20,000 nucleotides of DNA from an uncultured virus (IMG/VR IMGVR_UViG_3300046742_000152) (lineage: Duplodnaviria; Heunggongvirae; Uroviricota; Caudoviricetes). The stretch lies in IMG/VR virus record IMGVR_UViG_3300046742_000152, positions 53,872-73,871 of that record, one strand, 5' to 3'. Positions 1 to 20,000 of this stretch are shown one piece after another (within the stretch, counting starts at the first letter, position 1; every line of letters begins with the position of its first letter). The notes under the pieces were generated by a model that worked only from the letters and a program-made list of their open reading frames with translations, had not been told where the DNA came from and did no database searches. The translations under genes and the position numbers were made by a program.

Positions 1-311
1 ATCTACAAGTTTAGTTTATTTTTTTTTAAGTTATGACATAAACATCCAACTAACCATTTCAATTATTCGCAGTTTATGATATGGATAAACTTTTATCTGT
101 TTTGCAGATAGATGACCCCACAATCCTTTTATCTGCGTCAAAGGTTGTAAGGTAGCAGAATTAAGCTGCTAAAGCAAGCTGCTCGCTTTGAGGCGAGTAA
201 GCTTGAATACGTGACTTATTGCCATGTAAACTTTTGCATCTTTTTGAGGAGCCAGATGCACTCCTACTTGCAATATACTAATCCAACTTAAATCGAATCC
301 AGTACACGCCC
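1..311 (-). ncRNA. ssrA: tmRNA (transfer-messenger RNA); 3' tRNA-like end lies beyond the left window edge
   Basis: Minus strand starts GGGCGTGTACTGGATTCGA (tmRNA 5' acceptor and GGATTCGA motif). Pseudoknot 1 stems are AGGAG/CTCCT and TGCATCT/AGATGCA (about 235-265). The tag frame ends LALAA-TAA. PK2-like pairings are ACCTTACAA/TTGTGGGGT and GCAGATA/TATCTGC. Near the edge, CTAAACTTGTAGA resembles the conserved CTAAGCATGTAG segment, and its ACTTGT can pair with the 5' GCAAGT. Confidence 0.93.
161..223 (-). other. tmRNA tag reading frame, (A)GNKSRIQAYSPQSEQLALAA*
   Basis: GGC AAT AAG TCA CGT ATT CAA GCT TAC TCG CCT CAA AGC GAG CAG CTT GCT TTA GCA GCT TAA, just after PK1. The LAA terminus is the canonical ssrA degron. 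The resume codon is inferred from position. Confidence 0.85.
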
Positions 312-317
312 ATAAAA

Positions 318-329
318 TTTTAAAGAACA
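318..329 (-). promoter_or_regulatory. boxA-like element in the tmRNA leader
   Basis: TGTTCTTTAAAA matches the boxA consensus TGCTCTTTAACA at 10 of 12 positions and lies 6 nt upstream of the tmRNA 5' end. Confidence 0.45.
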
Positions 330-364
330 AGTTATATACTATATACCATAGTAATTGAATTAAT

Positions 365-398
365 TACACATAAATTAAATATTTGTGTATATCATATT
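365..398. promoter_or_regulatory. Divergent pair of GTGTA motifs (putative phage promoters)
   Basis: GTGTA occurs on the minus strand at 369-365 facing the tmRNA and on the plus strand at 385-389, 9 nt before ATG 399. The same motif precedes starts at 11166 and 7196. Confidence 0.5.
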
Positions 399-470
399 AT
401 GATACATCACGTTTCTGCACCACAAATATTAAGTTTGATAGCGATAGTAATCATTTTAAGTTGCTTATAA
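399..470 (+). CDS. Putative 23-aa hydrophobic peptide MIHHVSAPQILSLIAIVIILSCL
   Basis: ATG at 399, TAA at 468-470, preceded by GTGTA-N9. It has an uncharged hydrophobic C-terminal stretch and converges on clpC at a shared TTATAA. Confidence 0.45.
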   Translation: MIHHVSAPQILSLIAIVIILSCL

Positions 471-2921
471 TTTTGTGAAAATAAATTTATTATTTTTATA
501 ATCAAACTCAACAGAGTCATTATCGGATATTTTTTTTGACAAAATATTTTTACAAAGGACTGATTCTATATGTTGATTAAATAATCTTTCTATAGGTCTT
601 GCTCCCAAATTTAGTTCTTGCAACTTTAAAAGTAAAAAATCTAAAACGTTTTTTGAAATTTTAATTTTAATCTTTTTACCCTGTAATCTTTTGTTTAGCA
701 TTTTAATATAAATTGATATTATATCTTCATAGTGATCATTGGTAAAATTTGAAAAAATAATAATATCACTTATACGATTAACAAATTCAGGGGAGAAATG
801 TTTGCAAGCAAGTTTATGAATTTTTTCGTTGACAATATCTTGATCTATTTCAGCAGAAAGGAAGCCGACTGATTGAGAAGGTTTATCTAAGATGTCACTA
901 CCCAAGTTTCCAGTTAAAATAATTAAGCAATTTTGAAAATCAGCTGTTCTACCATAGTTATCAGAAAGTTTTCCTTCATCTAATATTGAAAGAAGAGATT
1001 TTAATACATCAGGATGAGCCTTTTCAATCTCATCAAAAAGAACTACGCTGTAAGGCTTTTTGCGAACTTGATCAACTAAGTTACTACCCTCTTCATAGCC
1101 GACGTAACCAGGTGATGACCCTGTAATTTTTGAAGAGCTGGCAGAATCTGAAAACTCTCCCATATCAATTCTAATAATTTTATCTTCTCCTCCAAAAATA
1201 AATTTAGACATTTTTTTTGCCATTAAAGTTTTACCAGTACCAGTTTTCCCCAACAAAAGAAAAACACCCGCTGGTTTGTTCGGGTTATTCAATCCGCAAG
1301 CGGCTCTCTGAATGGATTGACAAATTTTTTGAACAGCAGTATTTTGTCCTATAATTTCTTTTTTAAGATTACCTTCTAATTTTAGATACTTATCATCTGA
1401 AGTCGAAGAGATAATTGAAAGTGGGATTTTAACTTTTTGAGAAATAATTTCTTCTATATTATTCTTCGTGATATATATTTTTTTCTTAGCTATTGTCTTT
1501 TGCCACTCATCTAATATTTTTTGATATTTTTCAAAGAGATCATCAATGCATTCTCCTAAAACTTGCTTCCTATCTTTGTCGGAAGTTGATTCTTCTTGGT
1601 CAATTAAAGACTCCAAAGAAGATTCTAGATTTAAAATTTCTTGAGGGCGATTAAAATTTTTAACTTTTGCTTTTGCGGCAGCTTCATCTATAATGTCTAT
1701 AGCCTTGTCAGGTAAAAAACGATCATTGATATATCTAGAGCTAAGCTCTACCGCAGCTTCTAGAGCATTTCTTCTAAATTTAACTTGATGAAAAGATTCA
1801 TATTCTGGCGCTAAGCTTTGCAAAATATTAAAACAGTCTTTTTTTGAAGGTTCTGAAACTAAAACTGTTTGGAATCTCCTGGATAATGCCGAATCTTTTT
1901 CTATAGAGTTCTTGAATTCTTTTAACGTGGTAGCTCCAATGCATTTTAAATTTCCACGAGCTAGTAAAGGTTTTAAAATATTTGCGGCATCCATTCCCCC
2001 TTCGGAATTTCCAGCTCCCATTAAAGTATGAATTTCATCAATAAATAAAATATTATAATCAGAAGATTGAACTTGTTTTAAAATTTCTTTCAAACGTTCT
2101 TCGAACTGACCTCGATATTTAGTTCCTGCAATAACACTATTTAGATTTAACCCAAGAACTTGAGAGTTTAAAAGTATATCAGGCACTTGCTTCGATACTA
2201 TTCTTTGAGCCAAACCTTCTATTAAGGCTGTTTTTCCCACCCCCGCTTCGCCTAAAATGATTGGATTATTTTTTACACGGCGACATAAAATTTCAATTAC
2301 TTGGTCGATTTCTTCTTCTCGATTTACGACTTGATCAAATTTACCTTCACTGGCTAATGCGGAATAATTAATAGAAAACTGATCTAAAGAGCTTGGCTCA
2401 AGATCTTTTTTTGGAGAAGGATTTGATTTGCGATCCTTAGTTTTGTTTAAAAATTTCTTTAAATCTTTACGCTTTTCTTCGACGTCGCCTTCAAGAGACA
2501 ATTGAACAGCATCAAAAATAGAATTAGGTTCCAAATTAAAACTTAAAAATAGATTTTGAACGTTAGGGTTAGATCGTAAAGATAAAAAGATATGCTCAAC
2601 CCCAACGTAATCATGTCCATAAGTCATGGCTAATTTAGAAGACTCTCTTAATAAAATTTTAAAGCTTTTTGAATAAGAGATATCAACTCTTTGATCGTTG
2701 GGCAAAAAAGAAGCAGGGAACTCTAGGGTTTTATTTTTTAAATCTTGCATGGAAAACGCAGACTCTCCGCCCATAGAATAAAACAAACTATCTTGAACTT
2801 TAAAAATTCCATACACTAAATGTATTGGTTCAACTAAATTAATCCTAGAATCAACACACAAATTTTTGGCAATTTTAATTGCTTGTTGAACGCGAGGGGT
2901 AAAGTTTGGAAGTATATCCAT
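465..2921 (-). CDS. clpC: ATP-dependent Clp protease ATP-binding subunit, ClpC/ClpA type
   Basis: Clp N repeats (NFTPR...EPIHLVYG; YVGVEHIFLSL). NBD1 has GEAGVGKT, ILFIDEIH and the pore loop GTKYRGQFEER. A short coiled middle domain follows. NBD2 has GKTGTGKT, GYVGY and VVLFDEIEKAHPD. A ClpP-docking-type VGF loop (861-869) and GARP sensor are present. Confidence 0.92.
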   Translation of the reverse strand: MDILPNFTPRVQQAIKIAKNLCVDSRINLVEPIHLVYGIFKVQDSLFYSMGGESAFSMQDLKNKTLEFPASFLPNDQRVDISYSKSFKILLRESSKLAMTYGHDYVGVEHIFLSLRSNPNVQNLFLSFNLEPNSIFDAVQLSLEGDVEEKRKDLKKFLNKTKDRKSNPSPKKDLEPSSLDQFSINYSALASEGKFDQVVNREEEIDQVIEILCRRVKNNPIILGEAGVGKTALIEGLAQRIVSKQVPDILLNSQVLGLNLNSVIAGTKYRGQFEERLKEILKQVQSSDYNILFIDEIHTLMGAGNSEGGMDAANILKPLLARGNLKCIGATTLKEFKNSIEKDSALSRRFQTVLVSEPSKKDCFNILQSLAPEYESFHQVKFRRNALEAAVELSSRYINDRFLPDKAIDIIDEAAAKAKVKNFNRPQEILNLESSLESLIDQEESTSDKDRKQVLGECIDDLFEKYQKILDEWQKTIAKKKIYITKNNIEEIISQKVKIPLSIISSTSDDKYLKLEGNLKKEIIGQNTAVQKICQSIQRAACGLNNPNKPAGVFLLLGKTGTGKTLMAKKMSKFIFGGEDKIIRIDMGEFSDSASSSKITGSSPGYVGYEEGSNLVDQVRKKPYSVVLFDEIEKAHPDVLKSLLSILDEGKLSDNYGRTADFQNCLIILTGNLGSDILDKPSQSVGFLSAEIDQDIVNEKIHKLACKHFSPEFVNRISDIIIFSNFTNDHYEDIISIYIKMLNKRLQGKKIKIKISKNVLDFLLLKLQELNLGARPIERLFNQHIESVLCKNILSKKISDNDSVEFDYKNNKFIFTKL

Positions 2922-5461
2922 TATCTGATGTCTCCTAATTTCATGTAAATTTTTTCTTGCAAAGGTAAAATATTGTCAGCGAAAATAATGTCCGAAAACT
3001 TAGAACCAATTACACCTATTATATCATCTTTTTCTGGAAGTTTTTTTCCAGAATCTAAATATTCACTGTATTTAGCGCCTCTTGAATTATCCATGAACAT
3101 TACTGGGTATTTACCATATTCATCATGTAATATAAGTTTTACATATTTATTACCATTTCTGCTAGTGCCTTTATAATAATCAAAAACAATTCCAATAAAT
3201 TTCCCTCTGCAAGAATCATTATTATAAAAATCATTTGAATTATATATAATTTCAGAATCATTGAATACAGATTTTAAGTCACTACTATAACTATAACCCA
3301 AAAGCTTACTTTCAAAATACCAATTAGCAAATTTTTCATACTGCTTATTTTGTAAATAAATAGATTTATATTTTTCATATTTTGATTTAAAAGTATTAAA
3401 TCTAGACTCCTTCATTAAAGGCTTGCCATCTTTAGCAATTAAACCTTCTTTTGCGGCAGCGATAATATCTAGCAACATATAATTATATTTGGGAGCTAGG
3501 TCAATCGTTAATTTTTTTTCGCGATCAGTCAAAAGATTAAAGGACTGCGCTTCTAGAGCAAGCAGGGATCGACTGCAAGAATAACTAGGTAAGCAGCCAG
3601 CTTGAATCAAAGATGAAAGTATACCAATATTAAGACCAGACTCTTTTGCTTGAACAAAAGTTTTAAATTTATTAGGCTGTTTTTTAGATCGAAACTTACT
3701 CAAAGATTGCAAAGATTTTTCACTTACACCTTTGATGCTATTTAATCCAAATCTAATGTCCGAGTTTTCTTTAGAGAAATCCATTTCAGATCTCTCTAAA
3801 TCTGGAGGTAATAATTTTATATTAAAAAAGGATAATTCTTTGCTGATTTGACTAATTTCTTCTTGAGGAGCTGGTTCAAACTTTGTCATTTTTAGCAAAC
3901 TTAGAAAAAACTCTTGAGTATAATTGAATTTTAAAAATGTAGTCCATGCTGCTAGCGTAGAATAGGCTATAGAGTGACTCTTATTAAAAGAATAATTTGC
4001 GCTATCTTCAGCGACCTTCCATAATATTTCACCAACTTCAGGTGGCAGATTATTTAAAGAAACTTTTTCTTTAATTTTATCTTGCCATAAAGACATTTGA
4101 TCAACTTTTTTCTTTCCAACGATTCTCCTTAATTGTTCGGATTCGTCAAGGGAGAACCCAATCCTAACAGCCATTTTCATTAACTGCTCTTGGTATAAAG
4201 GTATGCCTCCTGTGTAGCTTAATTCTTCAGCAAAAAAATCATGAATAACATTAGAGTCATTTGTTTTTACGTATTCAGCATAAAGTTCTGTAAACTCCAA
4301 AGCCCCTGGACGAGCAATCGCTATAACCGCGCTAAGCTGCTCTAAACTTTTGGGTTTCACGGTTTTGCATACGCGAAAATTAGTATCAGCTTCAATTTGA
4401 AAAAGACCATGTGGAGATCTTAAGCTTTCTTGAAGAGGTAAGTAAATTGAAGGATCGTCTAAATTAACTTTTTTAATATCTACGTTAATATTATTACACA
4501 CATCGTAAATAACACTCAATGTTCTTAACCCAAGAATATCGAACTTTACCATGAGTTCAGAGACCCAATTCATGTCGTAACCAGTAATAATTGAGCCATC
4601 ATTGGTGGATTGAAGAGGGCAAATTTCAGAGATTTTAAAGAATGATATTGCAATGCCAGAAGGGTGGACTCCTGTATTTTTATATAAGCCTTCGAGTTTT
4701 CGAGCTATTTTAAAGCACTCAGGATTTTCTTTTGACCAAGATAAAAACCTTTCACTTTCTTCAGTAGCTTTTTCCAAAGAAAAAACTTTACCAAATTTCT
4801 TGGGTATTAGGTCACTCACAGCATTAACATCTTTTTCAGAAAACTCACTGACAATTTTTCCGCATTCTTTAATGCATAGCTTGCTGCTTAAACTGTTTAA
4901 GGTTAAAATTTTTGAAGTTCTTGAGGGGTTTTTCGCTTCAATGTAATCAATAACTTTTTGCCTATGCTCGTAAGCAATATCATTATCAACGTCAGCTAAT
5001 AAGCTTCCGTCAAGATATGTTATTCCATCTACTTCAATTTTTTTTGCTCGACTTTCTGAAACAAATCGTTCGAAAAATAGTTCATACTTTACGGGGTCAA
5101 TGCTGGTAACACCGATTAAAAATAAGACTAATGATCCTGCAGCTGACCCTCGACCAGGTCCGACGGGAATATTATTTTCATGACAAAAGTTAATAATATC
5201 CCAATTCAAAAGAATATAATCTGTGAAACCAAGTTTGTTTAAAATTTCGAGTTCTGAAGATAATCTGGCAGAATAATTTTTACCTAAACTATTTTCTTTT
5301 AATTTTTTATCACACAAATTCTTTAAAAAAGTAAAATTATCAACATCATCTTTTAAATTTAGGCGTTCGTAGTATTTTTTATCTATTTCGATTTGGGGTA
5401 GGCGAACTCCAGGGGGTACACAATTTTTATATTCAGTAAAATTATTAAAAAAATTTTTCAT
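2921..5461 (-). CDS. dnaE: DNA polymerase III alpha (DnaE) catalytic core lacking the PHP domain
   Basis: Motifs GPGRGSAAGS, LFFERF, DVDND (catalytic Asp pair), HPSG, KFDILGL, YQEQLM, FNKSHS and IRFGLNSIKGV, with a C-terminal OB fold. The likely start is ATG 5461 in a TAATG overlap; the ORF track start at 5479 is an alternative. Confidence 0.93.
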   Translation of the reverse strand: MKNFFNNFTEYKNCVPPGVRLPQIEIDKKYYERLNLKDDVDNFTFLKNLCDKKLKENSLGKNYSARLSSELEILNKLGFTDYILLNWDIINFCHENNIPVGPGRGSAAGSLVLFLIGVTSIDPVKYELFFERFVSESRAKKIEVDGITYLDGSLLADVDNDIAYEHRQKVIDYIEAKNPSRTSKILTLNSLSSKLCIKECGKIVSEFSEKDVNAVSDLIPKKFGKVFSLEKATEESERFLSWSKENPECFKIARKLEGLYKNTGVHPSGIAISFFKISEICPLQSTNDGSIITGYDMNWVSELMVKFDILGLRTLSVIYDVCNNINVDIKKVNLDDPSIYLPLQESLRSPHGLFQIEADTNFRVCKTVKPKSLEQLSAVIAIARPGALEFTELYAEYVKTNDSNVIHDFFAEELSYTGGIPLYQEQLMKMAVRIGFSLDESEQLRRIVGKKKVDQMSLWQDKIKEKVSLNNLPPEVGEILWKVAEDSANYSFNKSHSIAYSTLAAWTTFLKFNYTQEFFLSLLKMTKFEPAPQEEISQISKELSFFNIKLLPPDLERSEMDFSKENSDIRFGLNSIKGVSEKSLQSLSKFRSKKQPNKFKTFVQAKESGLNIGILSSLIQAGCLPSYSCSRSLLALEAQSFNLLTDREKKLTIDLAPKYNYMLLDIIAAAKEGLIAKDGKPLMKESRFNTFKSKYEKYKSIYLQNKQYEKFANWYFESKLLGYSYSSDLKSVFNDSEIIYNSNDFYNNDSCRGKFIGIVFDYYKGTSRNGNKYVKLILHDEYGKYPVMFMDNSRGAKYSEYLDSGKKLPEKDDIIGVIGSKFSDIIFADNILPLQEKIYMKLGDIR

Positions 5462-6099
5462 TATATGTTTGATTTCCAAATCATTGATTTAAATACTTTG
5501 AAGTTTTGCTCAATATCGTAAAGCGCATCATGAAGTTTGTTTTCGTCAAAATCTATTTTAAATTTCTCACAAAGAGATTTTAAATTAGTTTTTAAACCTC
5601 TCTTCTTTATTTTTTGAAGTTTAAATTGCCACAGCGTTAGATCAGTTTCATCATACTCAATGTCAAGAGCGTTAGCTTTAGCTATACAATTCGTATCTAT
5701 TAATCTATCTACATAAGAATAATCAGAGCGTTTTCCGCATAATAATCGATGAATGTTGTGAATGAAAATATCAAAACCTATAATGTTATGACCGACTATA
5801 TAATAGTCAGGATTATAAATATAACTTTCAAATAAATTTAAAACTTCCAAAGGGTCTGTAGCTCGTTTTTGATAAACAGACTCTTTGAATCCAGTTACTT
5901 GCTTTGCTCCATCAGAAATTTTTAAATCATTCCAGCGTAAATAAAAATCATATTTTTTTTCGATTTTATCGTGACTGCAAATTAAAAAAGCTAATTGCCA
6001 AGGTTTATTATCTAAGGATGCTAAATTTAAGCTGCAAGTTTCATAGTCAAAAACTATAAATTTCTTATTTTTTTTAAATCTTAATAAATTAGAGTTCAT
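5461..6099 (-). CDS. dnaQ: DEDDh 3'-5' exonuclease (DnaQ/epsilon-like proofreader)
   Basis: ExoI FDYET, ExoII GHNIIGFD, LIDT, and ExoIII HDALYD. ATG 6099 is preferred over TTG 6153, which lies deep inside the upstream gene. Confidence 0.88.
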   Translation of the reverse strand: MNSNLLRFKKNKKFIVFDYETCSLNLASLDNKPWQLAFLICSHDKIEKKYDFYLRWNDLKISDGAKQVTGFKESVYQKRATDPLEVLNLFESYIYNPDYYIVGHNIIGFDIFIHNIHRLLCGKRSDYSYVDRLIDTNCIAKANALDIEYDETDLTLWQFKLQKIKKRGLKTNLKSLCEKFKIDFDENKLHDALYDIEQNFKVFKSMIWKSNI

Positions 6100-6844
6100 T
6101 GTAATTTTCCTTCCAACTTTCAAAACAAAACTCACGACTTCCAAAGCCTTCAAGGTTAGGCTTAGATAGAGAGCTTTTTTTTAAGAAACCTCGATTGCAA
6201 ATGCATTTATAAGTCTGCAAGGCATCTGCATCTTCTCGATTTTTGTAGAAAATGCTTTTAGTTAATTCGGTTTTAAAACCATTATCTTTGCAAAATTTAT
6301 TAACAATTTTATTTAAAATAAGGTCAGTAGGTAAATTGTTATTCTCTAAAAAAAAGATAGGATCAGTAAAAGAAAAATTTGGCAAGCAGTTTGAGAACAA
6401 AAAACTATTTTGATATAAAAAAGAATCATAAAAAGGAATAGCTAGAATTAAATCATCATTATTCCAAAACTTTTTGAGACATTTAAAGGTTCCAACGCCA
6501 TCAAAATCGCAATGAATTGAGCTATATATCAAATTTAGTTTCTTGCAACCCTCATCATTTTTAGCTAAAACAATAACTTTATGAACAGAGGGAGACTCGG
6601 TTTCCGAATCACATTTAATCATAAGCCTTAACCCGAATACCAAATGAATATTTTCTTCTAAAGATATTTTTCTTGCCTGAAGAAAACCAGTTGGAGCATC
6701 CTCTATAAGAACGAACTGCTTTAAATCATTTTCTAATAAAATATCAAAAATCGAATCAGAGCCTGAAGAGTTAGGAGAGCCTGGAGGATTTAGGGTTAAA
6801 ATACTTTTGCCTATACTATAATGAGACTTAAATAAAGGTAACAT
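6089..6844 (-). CDS. Stand-alone PHP domain of DNA polymerase III alpha with degenerate metal ligands
   Basis: LFKSHYSIGKS resembles HxHSxYSLLD; HKVIVLAKNDEGCKKL resembles HLVLLAKNxEGYxNL; TKSIFYKNREDADA resembles TNDVHYxxxEDAxA. It supplies the domain missing from the downstream dnaE. Confidence 0.85.
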   Translation of the reverse strand: MLPLFKSHYSIGKSILTLNPPGSPNSSGSDSIFDILLENDLKQFVLIEDAPTGFLQARKISLEENIHLVFGLRLMIKCDSETESPSVHKVIVLAKNDEGCKKLNLIYSSIHCDFDGVGTFKCLKKFWNNDDLILAIPFYDSFLYQNSFLFSNCLPNFSFTDPIFFLENNNLPTDLILNKIVNKFCKDNGFKTELTKSIFYKNREDADALQTYKCICNRGFLKKSSLSKPNLEGFGSREFCFESWKENYNEL

Positions 6845-16590: not shown

Positions 16591-19500
16591 TTAACTGACA
16601 ATAACAGCGGTATGTCCATCTATAACTCCACAACTACCTGGAGATAGAAGCTCGTGAATTTTACACTTGCCGTTAAAACCTGTAAAATTATTTGCTATAT
16701 TATCAAGACTCACGGGCTGACTAGTTCCAGAACATGTTGATTGCTCCCCGCATGTATCTTGAAAATGTTGTATGTTATCTATTATTTCCTGATTACATTC
16801 GCACACCTGTTGAATTGTAGCGTTTCCAATGCTAGGATGAGCTTTCTGCTTTTCTTCATCACTCATAGATGCACAGCTATCGGAGGTGTTATATATATCA
16901 TATAAACTTGTTGTCGGATCAAAATTAACACAAGACATATTGAGTGCGCTACATACACCACTATTCACTAAATTTTGCATTCCCTCGTTTAGCTGACCCA
17001 AAGTTTGAGAAGTGCTTAAGAAAGGAGCGTTACGGTTATAAGTTAAGCTTGCCGACATCGTGACTTGGCACTTATCTTTTTCAAAATCAACTGGGACTTG
17101 AATGAAAGGAGTTGTCCTATCTGCGTTAGGGATACTTAAAATTATCGACCCTGGAAAGCCAACTGTTAAATTTGCTTGATGCACGACTGACCTTCCGTTT
17201 GAAATCTTTACAGTGTAATTAGGAATTGTTAATCTTTGTTCGCAGGGGTTATAGGTTCCTGCCACTGTAAGTTCTGAGAGTATGCTGCATATCCTGCCGC
17301 TTCCAGTCAAACTTGTAGAAAAAGAAACAGGCTGCTCAAACTCGTTATCTTGAGTTGATTGACAATTTTGACCAATAAATTTAATTGCATCTTTATCGCC
17401 ACTTTGAGCGCACAAAGTTATGCCTAAGTTATCTAACTGATCGCATATGCCATCAAAATCACAGTTCTTGATCTGATCTTCAGTGAGTTCAAGTTCATCT
17501 TGTTGTTCTCGAACCGTCCAAGAAACTATGCTCTCGTCGGATCCAGCATTGCAGCGCCCCCAGTTATTATCCTCTGGGGAAGTTCCAGGATTTGCAATGC
17601 AACCTTCAACTTCTTGTATTTGTGGAAATAAAGTTTCACTACTTTCTTGGCTCTCTCCGTAGGATCGACAGACGCCACTAGGAGGATTATGAAAAGGACT
17701 GTCGGGGTCACCAACTGCATCGCACCAAGTTTGTTGTTGACTAATGCTTCGACTGCAACATTCATCATCAGGGTTAAACGAAACGTCCTTTGTTAATACC
17801 TTGATAGACCCTGAACCAGATACACTAACAGATCCAGAGTTGGATAACTTTACGTTAAAGGTTGAATCGCAACCATCTCGCTTGCATATTTCAGTACTGT
17901 TTTTACAATTTAAACAAGTTGGGGTTGGTGTAGATTGTTTGCATTTTAGGTCGCTACAATTGTCAACAGCTTCTAGACCATCGACATCAAAGCTAGCTCC
18001 TGGTTGAGCGCCAGCTTGCTCGCAAGATGCATTACCTACTTCGGTACTACTATAGCATTTACCAGACCAAAAATAAACATCAGAAGGTGGTTCTGATCCA
18101 TCACAAACAAAAAAGTGTTCACAGCAATGATCGTTATACTCAGGATCTGCAGGAATTGGTAAGCGACCATCTCCAGACTGGCTGTTCCAAATACATTGTT
18201 TTCTTTCCCAGCATTTACAGCTTGGGGTTGGAGTGGGGGTTGGAGTTGGTCTGAGGCAGTCCAAATCGTCACAACTGTTCACTTTTACAGCATCGCCGTA
18301 ACTTCGACTAGTTAGACCATTTACGCATGGAAATTCTTCAACATCAGAAATGCAACTTAAATTTTCTTTTTCACCAACAGAAAAGACTTCCGAACGTGGA
18401 GGGGTGCTATCATCACAAACCACAACCATTTCAGTGCCTCCGCCAGAAACTTCACAATAAGTTTCTTTGTAACATTTGCAAGTAGGAGTGGGAGTAGGGG
18501 TAGGGGTAGGTTTTATGCAGGCTATAGCGTCACAATCGCTAACTGGGTGACAACCATTCAAGGCAAGTCCCAATTGCGAGGAGCAAAGACTATAATCTTC
18601 AACCGCTAATTCAGTGCATTGAAGTTCTTGTCCTTCACCACATTTTCTAAGACCTTCTACCTCAGGTTCGTAACTACAGACAAATCCGTACTTAGGGTCT
18701 TCTTCTCCACAGTCTAAACGGCTATAACAAACGCAAGTAGGAGTAGGTTCTGGAGTTGGTGTAGGATTACAATGGTTGCAATCCTCGATTGGCTCACAGT
18801 CTGACACATCAATATCTTTTTTGTCTGGACAATCAAAAATGTGATCTGCAAAATCACCGCACAGTTCTTCACCTGGACATCTAAATTTTTGCAAGGCGGA
18901 ACCTTGGAAGTCCCAATTAGCAAAGCCAGTTATTGCATTGTATAAAGTAAAACTGCCATCACAACCTTTAAAGCGATAACAATTGACAGTTGGTGTAGGG
19001 CTGGGAGTAGGAGTTGGTTTTTGGCATAGTTCATCTTCACAATCTTTGATAGTATCTTGACTGCAATTTTCTAAACTATGAAATCCTTCTCCGTCACATT
19101 CTATTGGATCAACTTCTTCAAAAAGAAAACAATGTTTATTTTGATTATGCCCGCATAATTTATAAACATCTGATAAATCGCCACCTTCATAATAACCGTA
19201 CTCAATATCTTTTTCATCGATGCAACTTGTTTTTGATAAACAATATACTGTTGGAGTTGGTGGTGGGGTTACAGTGGGTACATTATATGTTTCGCTAGGC
19301 GGAGGAGTTTCTGTGACAGGAGTTTCTGTGAATGATGAAGTTGGCGTTGGCGTTGACGTTCTAGTTCCAGTATACGAAGGTGTTTCAGTTGGAGAAGTTG
19401 TTGTAGTTGGAGATGGAGAGGGAGTCGGGCTAGTTGTTGGGGTTGGAGATGGAGTTTGTGTTCCAGTTTCCGAAGGTGTTTCAGTTGGAGATAAAGTTGG

Positions 19501-20000
19501 AGTTTCTGTTACAGTATACGAAGGTGTTTCAGTTGGAGTTAAAGTTGGAGTTTCTGTTACAGTATACGAAGGTGTTTCAGTTGGAGTTAAAGTTGGAGTT
19601 TCTGTTACAGTATACGAAGGTGTTTCAGTTGGAGAGAAAGTCGGGCTAGTTGTTGGAGATAAAGTTGGAGTTTCTGTTACAGTATACGAAGGTGTTTCAG
19701 TTGGAGATAAAGTTGGAGTTTCTGTTACAGTATACGAAGGTGTTTCAGTTGGAGATAAAGTTGGAGTTTCTGTTACAGTATACGAAGGTGTTACAGTATA
19801 CGAAGGTGTTTCAGTTGGAGTTAAAGTTGGAGTTTCTGTTACAGTATACGAAGGTGTTTCAGTTGGAGTAAGTGTTAGGGATGGAGAGAAAGTCGGGCTA
19901 GTTGTTGGAGTTAAAGTTGGAGTTTCTGTTACAGTATACGAAGGTGTTTCAGTTGGAGTAAGTGTTAGGGATGGAGAGAAAGTCGGGCTAGTTGTTGGAG
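16591..20000 (-). CDS. Large Thr/Pro-repeat, Cys-rich modular protein, 5'-partial (at least 1135 aa); probable virion or surface protein
   Basis: Reading codon by codon from 18894 to the window edge finds no in-frame stop, so TTG 18894 is internal. The visible part has a mucin-like repeat region, five Cys-rich modules separated by PTPTPT linkers, and a Cys-rich C-terminal region. Confidence 0.85.
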   Translation of the reverse strand, partial: PTTSPTFSPSLTLTPTETPSYTVTETPTLTPTTSPTFSPSLTLTPTETPSYTVTETPTLTPTETPSYTVTPSYTVTETPTLSPTETPSYTVTETPTLSPTETPSYTVTETPTLSPTTSPTFSPTETPSYTVTETPTLTPTETPSYTVTETPTLTPTETPSYTVTETPTLSPTETPSETGTQTPSPTPTTSPTPSPSPTTTTSPTETPSYTGTRTSTPTPTSSFTETPVTETPPPSETYNVPTVTPPPTPTVYCLSKTSCIDEKDIEYGYYEGGDLSDVYKLCGHNQNKHCFLFEEVDPIECDGEGFHSLENCSQDTIKDCEDELCQKPTPTPSPTPTVNCYRFKGCDGSFTLYNAITGFANWDFQGSALQKFRCPGEELCGDFADHIFDCPDKKDIDVSDCEPIEDCNHCNPTPTPEPTPTCVCYSRLDCGEEDPKYGFVCSYEPEVEGLRKCGEGQELQCTELAVEDYSLCSSQLGLALNGCHPVSDCDAIACIKPTPTPTPTPTCKCYKETYCEVSGGGTEMVVVCDDSTPPRSEVFSVGEKENLSCISDVEEFPCVNGLTSRSYGDAVKVNSCDDLDCLRPTPTPTPTPSCKCWERKQCIWNSQSGDGRLPIPADPEYNDHCCEHFFVCDGSEPPSDVYFWSGKCYSSTEVGNASCEQAGAQPGASFDVDGLEAVDNCSDLKCKQSTPTPTCLNCKNSTEICKRDGCDSTFNVKLSNSGSVSVSGSGSIKVLTKDVSFNPDDECCSRSISQQQTWCDAVGDPDSPFHNPPSGVCRSYGESQESSETLFPQIQEVEGCIANPGTSPEDNNWGRCNAGSDESIVSWTVREQQDELELTEDQIKNCDFDGICDQLDNLGITLCAQSGDKDAIKFIGQNCQSTQDNEFEQPVSFSTSLTGSGRICSILSELTVAGTYNPCEQRLTIPNYTVKISNGRSVVHQANLTVGFPGSIILSIPNADRTTPFIQVPVDFEKDKCQVTMSASLTYNRNAPFLSTSQTLGQLNEGMQNLVNSGVCSALNMSCVNFDPTTSLYDIYNTSDSCASMSDEEKQKAHPSIGNATIQQVCECNQEIIDNIQHFQDTCGEQSTCSGTSQPVSLDNIANNFTGFNGKCKIHELLSPGSCGVIDGHTAVIVS
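19470..20000 (-). repeat. Coding tandem repeat: 48-bp unit (PTETPSYTVTETPTL[S/T]) with in-frame variants, including a 90-bp higher-order unit
   Basis: TACAGTATACGAAGG recurs at about 19510, 19558, 19606, 19678, 19726, 19774, 19792, 19840 and 19930. The spacings (48, 48, 72, 48, 48, 18, 48, 90) are all multiples of 3. Confidence 0.92.

Follow-up and report, generated by a model that had tools for sequence, protein, structure and literature searches.

A tmRNA gene next to clpC in a family of uncultured phages: probably two independent tools rather than a matched tag-and-degrade module

In a stretch of 20,000 nt from an uncultured phage of the Caudoviricetes (IMG/VR record IMGVR_UViG_3300046742_000152, positions 53,872 to 73,871; this whole stretch is called the window in the following), a gene for a transfer-messenger RNA (tmRNA) lies close downstream of a gene for a ClpC-type unfoldase. 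A preliminary description had proposed that the two genes form a tag-and-degrade module, i.e. that the phage brings both a tagger and a matching unfoldase. Our comparison with related phages points to a different reading. The tmRNA and clpC are probably independent core genes of the phage family, which adjoin each other in only a few lineages and would act as two separate tools on the host machinery, because the genes are usually far apart in relatives and appear to be inherited separately. The observations at the core of this reading are the sequences, the covariation of the tmRNA structure, the gene order, the discordance of the trees, and the loss of a motif from ClpC.

Gene order and inheritance of clpC and tmRNA

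Relatives were retrieved by scanning IMG/VR with DnaE, the product of the gene upstream of clpC, and the best 80 of 571 relatives were used (58-85% identity, contigs up to 214 kb). Four of the 80 loci end before clpC would be visible, one locus (L049) was counted though its clpC is frameshifted, and many loci are near-duplicates. In 75 of the 76 usable loci, clpC follows dnaE directly, with a start codon between -28 and +26 nt from the dnaE stop codon. The sole usable locus without clpC is L038, for which 1.1 kb after dnaE were inspected. The genes that follow clpC are highly variable among these loci.

For the tmRNA, whole records were analysed. It was found in 24 of 40 records, including all ten that are at least 90% complete. 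The distance between clpC and tmRNA in the 24 tmRNA-bearing records is 137 nt in one (G001, the closest relative), 1.3-1.4 kb in six, and 4.7-5.7 kb in two. The remaining 15 records have distances of 11-116 kb, and in two of these the tmRNA is encoded on the opposite strand. None of the ten near-complete records has a tmRNA directly after clpC.

Pooling of the scans gave 116 dnaE-adjacent full-length clpC loci, which collapsed to 67 clusters at 90% identity, 62 of them with at least 2.2 kb of downstream sequence. The tmRNA directly follows clpC in two of these clusters, lies 1.3-1.4 kb downstream in eight and 2.7-5.7 kb downstream in four, and is found about 11 kb upstream in two, while 46 clusters have none in the locus. 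For this phage family, an nhmmer search agreed with Rfam; five loci of the last group had no tmRNA. The eight clusters with 1.3-1.4 kb form a single clade (support 1.0), and the second lineage with direct adjacency is L412, with a gap of 58 nt. In the ClpC subclade with 54-59% identity, to which further scans added only L404/L244, adjacency is represented by four members (direct, direct, 2.7 kb, and 4.7 kb). The clpC-ssrA linkage, whose conservation had been suggested as a check, thus mostly fails in relatives, with direct neighbours in 1 of 24 records and 2 of 62 clusters.

Two side observations concern the surroundings of the tmRNA. An insert of 1.3-1.4 kb separates clpC and tmRNA in L007, L010, L011, L012, L014, L016, L028, and L050, and it holds an open reading frame (ORF) of about 430 aa where one was called. 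In L292 and L299, which are phages with a ClpC devoid of the N-domain, a GOLLD RNA adjoins the tmRNA. A count of 0 of 48 loci with N-domain-less ClpC and a tmRNA within 3 kb, obtained with ARAGORN/nhmmer, was discarded, as 6 of 10 such loci proved to carry a tmRNA in an Rfam search.

To compare the inheritance of the genes, Mantel tests were performed with 24 genomes; G020 was left out of this set and of the trees because its clpC is frameshifted. The correlation of tmRNA with ClpC was -0.05 (p 0.71), and that of tmRNA with DnaE was 0.34 (p 0.005). The value for ClpC and DnaE themselves, however, is only 0.245, which speaks against relying on these numbers and makes the test a weak one, so that the argument is carried by the tree topology and the approximately unbiased (AU) test. 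In the trees of both ClpC and DnaE, the genome of the window (G000) groups with G001 and then with G003, with a support of 1.0. The tmRNA alignment rejects the group of G000 and G001 (AU p 0.0077) as well as the group of G000, G001, and G003 (AU p 0.0013). The groupings were named from the protein trees, and the host tmRNAs G063 and G065 were left out.

The tags, which were compared by eye, fit into this picture. The ClpC of G001 is 80% identical to that of G000, the 137-nt spacer is similar, and the tRNA-like ends and the flanks of the two tmRNA genes align. The tag-coding interior differs, with 34 residues and a charge of about -9 in G001 versus 20 residues and about +1 in G000. The tag of L412 has 31 residues and a charge of about +10. 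Among the three cases of direct adjacency, one tag is thus neutral, one acidic, and one basic. Tags near-identical to that of the window were found in G023, G034, and G036, with ClpCs that are 38-43% identical and clpC genes that are 11-19 kb away. Taken from these sequence comparisons, tmRNA and ClpC have likely been inherited separately. A tmRNA with a matching unfoldase is therefore not supported by the family: adjacency is rare, the histories differ, and in G001 an 80%-identical ClpC stands beside an unrelated acidic tag of 34 residues.

The tmRNA gene and its upstream signals

In the window, Rfam RF00023 matches positions 311 to 1 on the minus strand with 58.4 bits, and the match is cut off at its 3′ end. 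Positions 1..311 are the 5′ 311 of 363 nt. The extended contig contains the whole gene (G000 C1 54182-53820, ending 52 nt left of the window), and its product is a one-piece tmRNA, which covers the whole model (1-374) with 128.5 bits (E 8e-50; gathering threshold 47 bits). The presence of a 3′ acceptor and T arm to the left of the window had been set as a test beforehand, and both were found in the 52 nt outside, i.e. an alanine-type acceptor stem with the G3-U pair, a T arm, and an encoded CCA. ARAGORN detected a tmRNA in neither the window nor the genome; it also missed others, and Rfam was used instead.

The structure was examined by covariation in 15 family members. For the acceptor stem, T stem, PK1, PK2, and the tag hairpin together, 96% of the cells are paired, and 25 of 51 pairs have changed on both sides, compared with 44-49% paired cells in slid controls. 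Helices 1 and 8 (acceptor and T stem) are paired to 100%. The pseudoknot PK1 (236..264, minus strand) comprises helices 3 and 4, with 100% and 95% of cells paired, and PK2 (104..151, minus strand) comprises helices 6 and 7, with 92% and 99%. PK3 and PK4 are represented by candidate stems. A hairpin-like insert of 20-35 nt in the PK3 region (alignment columns 310-345) is present or absent independently of the tag type, as seen in a comparison of the tmRNA genes of G001, G002, G003, G007, G021, L012, and L021.

The tag reading frame of the window (223 to 161, minus strand) has 20 codons plus a stop codon, a net charge of about +1, and ends with LALAA, a canonical hydrophobic end of the ssrA type. 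The resume codon was set by a conserved motif directly upstream, which is found in phage and host tmRNAs. An open tag frame starts from the resume position in 22 of 25 phage tmRNAs, and for the remaining three a tag with the same end was given by ARAGORN or by a script. The tags in the phage family have 20-41 aa and varied sequences, and the hydrophobic end is kept. The initial view of a tmRNA with PK1, PK2, and an LALAA end, which starts shortly after the ClpC stop codon on the same strand, was thus accurate. The phage tmRNA is 52-56% identical to the tmRNAs of candidate hosts, compared with 59-87% within the phage family, so that it is an old phage gene. Judged from their sequences, both the tmRNA and the clpC gene look functional, and alanylation, SmpB binding, and tagging are predicted for the tmRNA.

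The genes past the tmRNA differ among relatives. The 3′ end of the tmRNA has no repeat elsewhere in G000. In G019 and G020, a short stretch of the 3′ end is repeated directly downstream of the tmRNA, possibly a scar of cassette insertion.

The gap of 153 nt between the clpC stop codon and the tmRNA (312..464, minus strand) contains a promoter-like element and, at about 322-328, a motif that we take to be a boxA. Of 26 family tmRNAs, 21 have a boxA-like motif in the 70 nt before them, compared with 0.6 in shuffled sequences, whatever gene precedes. A GTGTA-type motif is present upstream of 17 of 26 (5.9 in shuffles), and a TTGACA-like motif upstream of 15 of 26 (4.3 in shuffles); the window is without the latter. 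The hits of a generic sigma-70 scan (7 sites versus 4.7) did not exceed the level of chance. Because the upstream motifs are conserved whatever gene precedes, they fit a self-contained transcription unit with a putative promoter of its own.

The ClpC protein, the replication block, and the likely host

The clpC gene (465..2921, minus strand) encodes a two-ring AAA+ unfoldase of 818 aa. The best matches in the PDB, by sequence and by fold, are the ClpCs of Bacillus subtilis and Staphylococcus aureus, and PHROG 4871 ("ATP-dependent protease") is matched over the whole length (E 1e-222). In accordance with the bacterial proteins (PDB 3j3s, 6em8, 9rai), the phage protein consists of an N-domain, the AAA+ domain D1, a short coiled-coil M-domain, and the AAA+ domain D2. 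Walker A and B motifs, pore loops with their tyrosines, and arginine fingers are intact in both AAA+ domains. The M-domain is colinear with that of bacterial ClpC, has helices at 427-445 and 449-479 in the structure model, and was classified by the criterion of being longer than in ClpA and shorter than in ClpB. As the preliminary description had stated, the protein keeps the ClpP-docking VGF loop (D2, at about 685-687) and its gene closes the replication block. The ClpP loop is conserved in 61 of 63 phage ClpCs (IGF in 23, VGF in 18, MGF in 11, and LGF in 9), the other two being the exceptions.

Unlike the ClpCs of B. subtilis and S. aureus, the phage protein lacks the tip of the M-domain, has a replaced E32-equivalent, and is encoded by a gene coupled to dnaE. 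The tip motif serves the resting state of ClpC and the binding of MecA. Its residues, F436, R443, and D444 in S. aureus, are absent in 63 of 63 phage ClpCs and present in all three candidate-host ClpCs. The missing motif makes the phage protein ClpC-like rather than a canonical regulated ClpC, and, because the tip represses bacterial ClpC, the phage protein is predicted to be derepressed and constitutively active. In S. aureus, M-domain mutants are described as adaptor-independent on casein and toxic together with ClpP (PMC5699869).

The N-domain is eroded, with a weak Clp_N match (21.8 bits); in the phospho-arginine pockets, the E106-equivalent is kept and the E32-equivalent is replaced. S. 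aureus M-domain mutants that have their N-domain are reported to degrade green fluorescent protein (GFP)-SsrA barely, unless the N-domain is removed as well (PMC5699869; PMC12583610). Because the N-domain is likewise kept here, the phage ClpC is not obviously a reader of ssrA tags. As a side observation, in four loci (L267, L276, L288, and L290) dnaE is followed by a gene for a Clp ATPase with one ring and about 500 aa, and all four proteins have a terminal IGF motif.

The viral record, of which the window forms the right end, has 73.9 kb and is about 55% complete. The minus-strand replication block of the window encodes a RecA-like protein, a DnaB helicase, a primase, a PD-(D/E)XK nuclease, an exonuclease, DnaE, and then the Clp ATPase. 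The gene for the DnaE-type DNA polymerase (2921..5479, minus strand) is the constant neighbour of clpC and shares 1 nt of its stop codon with the start codon of clpC. A contig of 19,057 nt, from a public marine run without a flag as possible source, covers the whole junction of clpC and tmRNA uninterrupted, with 84 differences in 4.5 kb, so that the junction is no assembly chimera. A further observation concerns 5461-6844: the DnaE is without the N-terminal PHP part, and directly upstream are the exonuclease gene and an ORF of 251 aa without a family match, which we take to be PHP-like. At 16591-20000, a very long Cys-rich ORF with Pro-Thr repeats is open at the window end.

INPHARED contains no close or cultured relative; the best DnaE has 33% identity, the best ClpC about 38-43%, and the tmRNA match extends over only 33 nt. 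A clue to the host comes from a DUF1501 gene that starts 7 nt past the CCA of the tmRNA (G000 C1 52532-53812; L002 8533-9813, minus strand). Its best bacterial matches are in Opitutia/Opitutales (66-73% identity), and the runs that hold DNA of the phage are mostly seawater, so that a marine member of the Opitutales is the inferred host. None of the runs listed is of RNA, which has no bearing on expression. One DUF1501 match with 93% identity comes from a phage-like contig of 211 kb in a Cellvibrionales bin. This contig (L120 / G041 contig C4, JAYQMT010000004.1, 210,818 bp) is apparently a family phage inside a Cellvibrionales metagenome-assembled genome, hence the two tmRNAs there. The tmRNA-DUF1501 pair is also present in four of 27 other tmRNA loci (the 211-kb relative and three records), each 18-22 kb from clpC.

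Five candidate-host genomes, all of them incomplete, encode ClpP (5/5), ClpX (4/5), SmpB (3/5), and, in three cases, a ClpC of their own. Their tags have 17-18 residues, are acidic, and have the same end as the window tag. Among the 40 phage-family records, SmpB was found in none and ClpP in four. The ClpP-like peptidase was seen in L116-L119 (G010, G011, G028, and G029), and in G011 its gene is part of the DnaE locus, a few kb upstream of clpC. Because the phages are without SmpB and seldom have ClpP, and the likely hosts encode both, the earlier suggestion that the phage borrows SmpB and ClpP from its host is sound.

Evaluation of the alternatives and biological meaning

Several results weigh against the reading that tmRNA and clpC are independent tools. 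Both genes are present in all ten near-complete relatives. A tmRNA within 1.4 kb downstream of clpC was found in 10 of 62 clusters, far above the roughly 1% that random placement in 140-210 kb would give by our own arithmetic, although these ten clusters stand for no more than about three lineages. The direct neighbourhood has at least two origins (G000/G001 and L412). In addition, in an unrelated phage group with an N-domain-less ClpC, Rfam places a tmRNA 2-3 kb downstream of clpC in six of ten loci. Lastly, the N-domain of the phage ClpC is divergent and may not block tag entry in the way the S. aureus domain does.

The co-occurrence and the repeated proximity in two phage groups would also suit a loose partnership, which we regard as possible, albeit clearly less probable. 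Both genes would then belong to one proteostasis kit, and a derepressed ClpC would pull in any unstructured C-terminal tail, including the phage tag, adding capacity when the host ClpXP is saturated; neither sequence matching nor a fixed gene order would be needed. The family-wide loss of the M-domain tip together with the conserved ClpP loop is compatible with this idea, as are the long and varied tags with their constant hydrophobic end, and activated S. aureus ClpC is reported to degrade GFP-SsrA through its pore (PMC5699869). However, the phage has kept the N-domain, which in S. aureus blocks the use of GFP-SsrA by M-domain mutants, and the invariant neighbour of clpC is dnaE. Moreover, tmRNA was found in 0 of 7 and 0 of 3 records that belong, or likely belong, to one ClpC clade, although these records are only 12-78% complete. 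Unlikely, in our estimation, is the more far-reaching idea that a large aquatic phage family runs its own trans-translation arm, in which a swappable long-tag tmRNA is combined with a brakeless ClpC that seizes host ClpP without an adaptor. The tags would mark chains that are stalled or come from the host, and the ClpC, produced together with the DNA polymerase, would destroy them and redirect host proteolysis, which we consider equally doubtful.

A ClpC dedicated to reading the tag of the neighbouring tmRNA, in a co-evolved and co-transcribed tag-and-degrade unit, appears improbable. Such a unit would agree with the common strand, the short gap, and a scan that found no terminator-like site between clpC and tmRNA, which means little in such AT-rich DNA; the position is also kept in G001 (137 nt) and recurs in L412 (58 nt). 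Of the features expected of such a module, co-occurrence is seen in all records that are at least 90% complete; adjacency is not conserved, with two of 62 clusters, and co-inheritance is not borne out, with the ClpC/DnaE groupings rejected for the tmRNA by the AU test and with the Mantel result. The tags of the direct cases (20 aa and about +1, 34 aa and about -9, 31 aa and about +10) also argue against matching, as do the exchanged tag-coding part between aligned flanks and tRNA-like ends in G000 and G001, and the tmRNA's own upstream signals. We give least credit to a tmRNA that is a decoy for SmpB or a landing site for gene cassettes, with tagging as an incidental activity. The variable genes past the tmRNA and the short repeats in G019 and G020 would be in line with this, and a phage molecule that consists of the tRNA-like domain only has been suggested to titrate SmpB (PMC4131195). 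Yet the tag frame, PK1, PK2, and the tag hairpin are conserved with compensatory changes, all 25 phage tmRNAs have an open tag frame or a tag with the same end, and the genome of the window has no further copy of the 3′ end.

For the preferred reading of two independent tools, the following course of events can be envisaged. ClpC, encoded at the end of the replication block, is likely co-translated with DnaE via the 1-nt overlap of stop and start codon, and transcription of the tmRNA likely starts at a promoter of its own. The tmRNA would be charged with alanine by the host and, together with host SmpB, would free stalled ribosomes. The phage tag would be read mostly by host ClpXP, like the host's own tag. 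ClpC is predicted to dock on host ClpP and to work without the brake of the M-domain; its likeliest task would be to unfold or destroy phage or host proteins of the replication stage. These substrates would be picked by the eroded N-domain or by an unknown adaptor, and not via the tmRNA tag.

Phage tmRNAs and phage Clp ATPases have both been published already. Complete ssrA genes in large phages have been described for mycobacteriophages of the Bxz1 group, Bacillus phage G, huge phages, and the OM43 phage Melnitz (PMC4131195, PMC7162821, PMC9004378). One of these reports lists tmRNA in 402 of 18,146 phage genomes and has also proposed that phage tmRNA tags host proteins for degradation (PMC9004378). 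In contrast to these phages, the present family is uncultured, likely infects marine Opitutales, lacks SmpB in 40 records, and has tags of 20-41 residues, exchanged among relatives. In the bacteria studied, ssrA tags are reported to be cleared predominantly by ClpXP (PMC8138137). The phage tag shares its end with the host tag, while the tagger is phage-encoded and the tag body is unlike the acidic host tag of 17-18 residues. Phage-borne Clp ATPases are catalogued as PHROG 4871 and as Clp genes of bS21 phages (PMC9723584), and our literature search found no experimental study of a phage Clp ATPase of the PHROG 4871 type. SPO1 Gp53 is another example of a phage steering ClpC-ClpP proteolysis, as an adaptor for host ClpC according to PMC6873191, whereas a whole unfoldase is encoded here. 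A search that covered few subscription journals and no supplements turned up no publication that links clpC with ssrA in phages or describes a brakeless phage ClpC; gene tables of huge phages may list such pairs.

The results add one more family to the phages known to have both a tmRNA and a Clp ATPase, and the closeness of the two genes here does not bear out a matched module. The features are real and of ordinary kinds. Two of them are worth an experiment: throughout the family ClpC has lost its brake, and tags have been swapped naturally. The tag swap between phages with 80%-identical ClpCs is a ready-made control for the question of whether a phage unfoldase reads a phage tag. ClpC, the near-universal partner of dnaE, is the part that merits a bench test, given that mutation of the M-domain tip is reported to make bacterial ClpC constitutive and toxic (PMC5699869). 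Should the phage ClpC need no adaptor for its activity, phages would have in it a natural means of commandeering the ClpP of the host.

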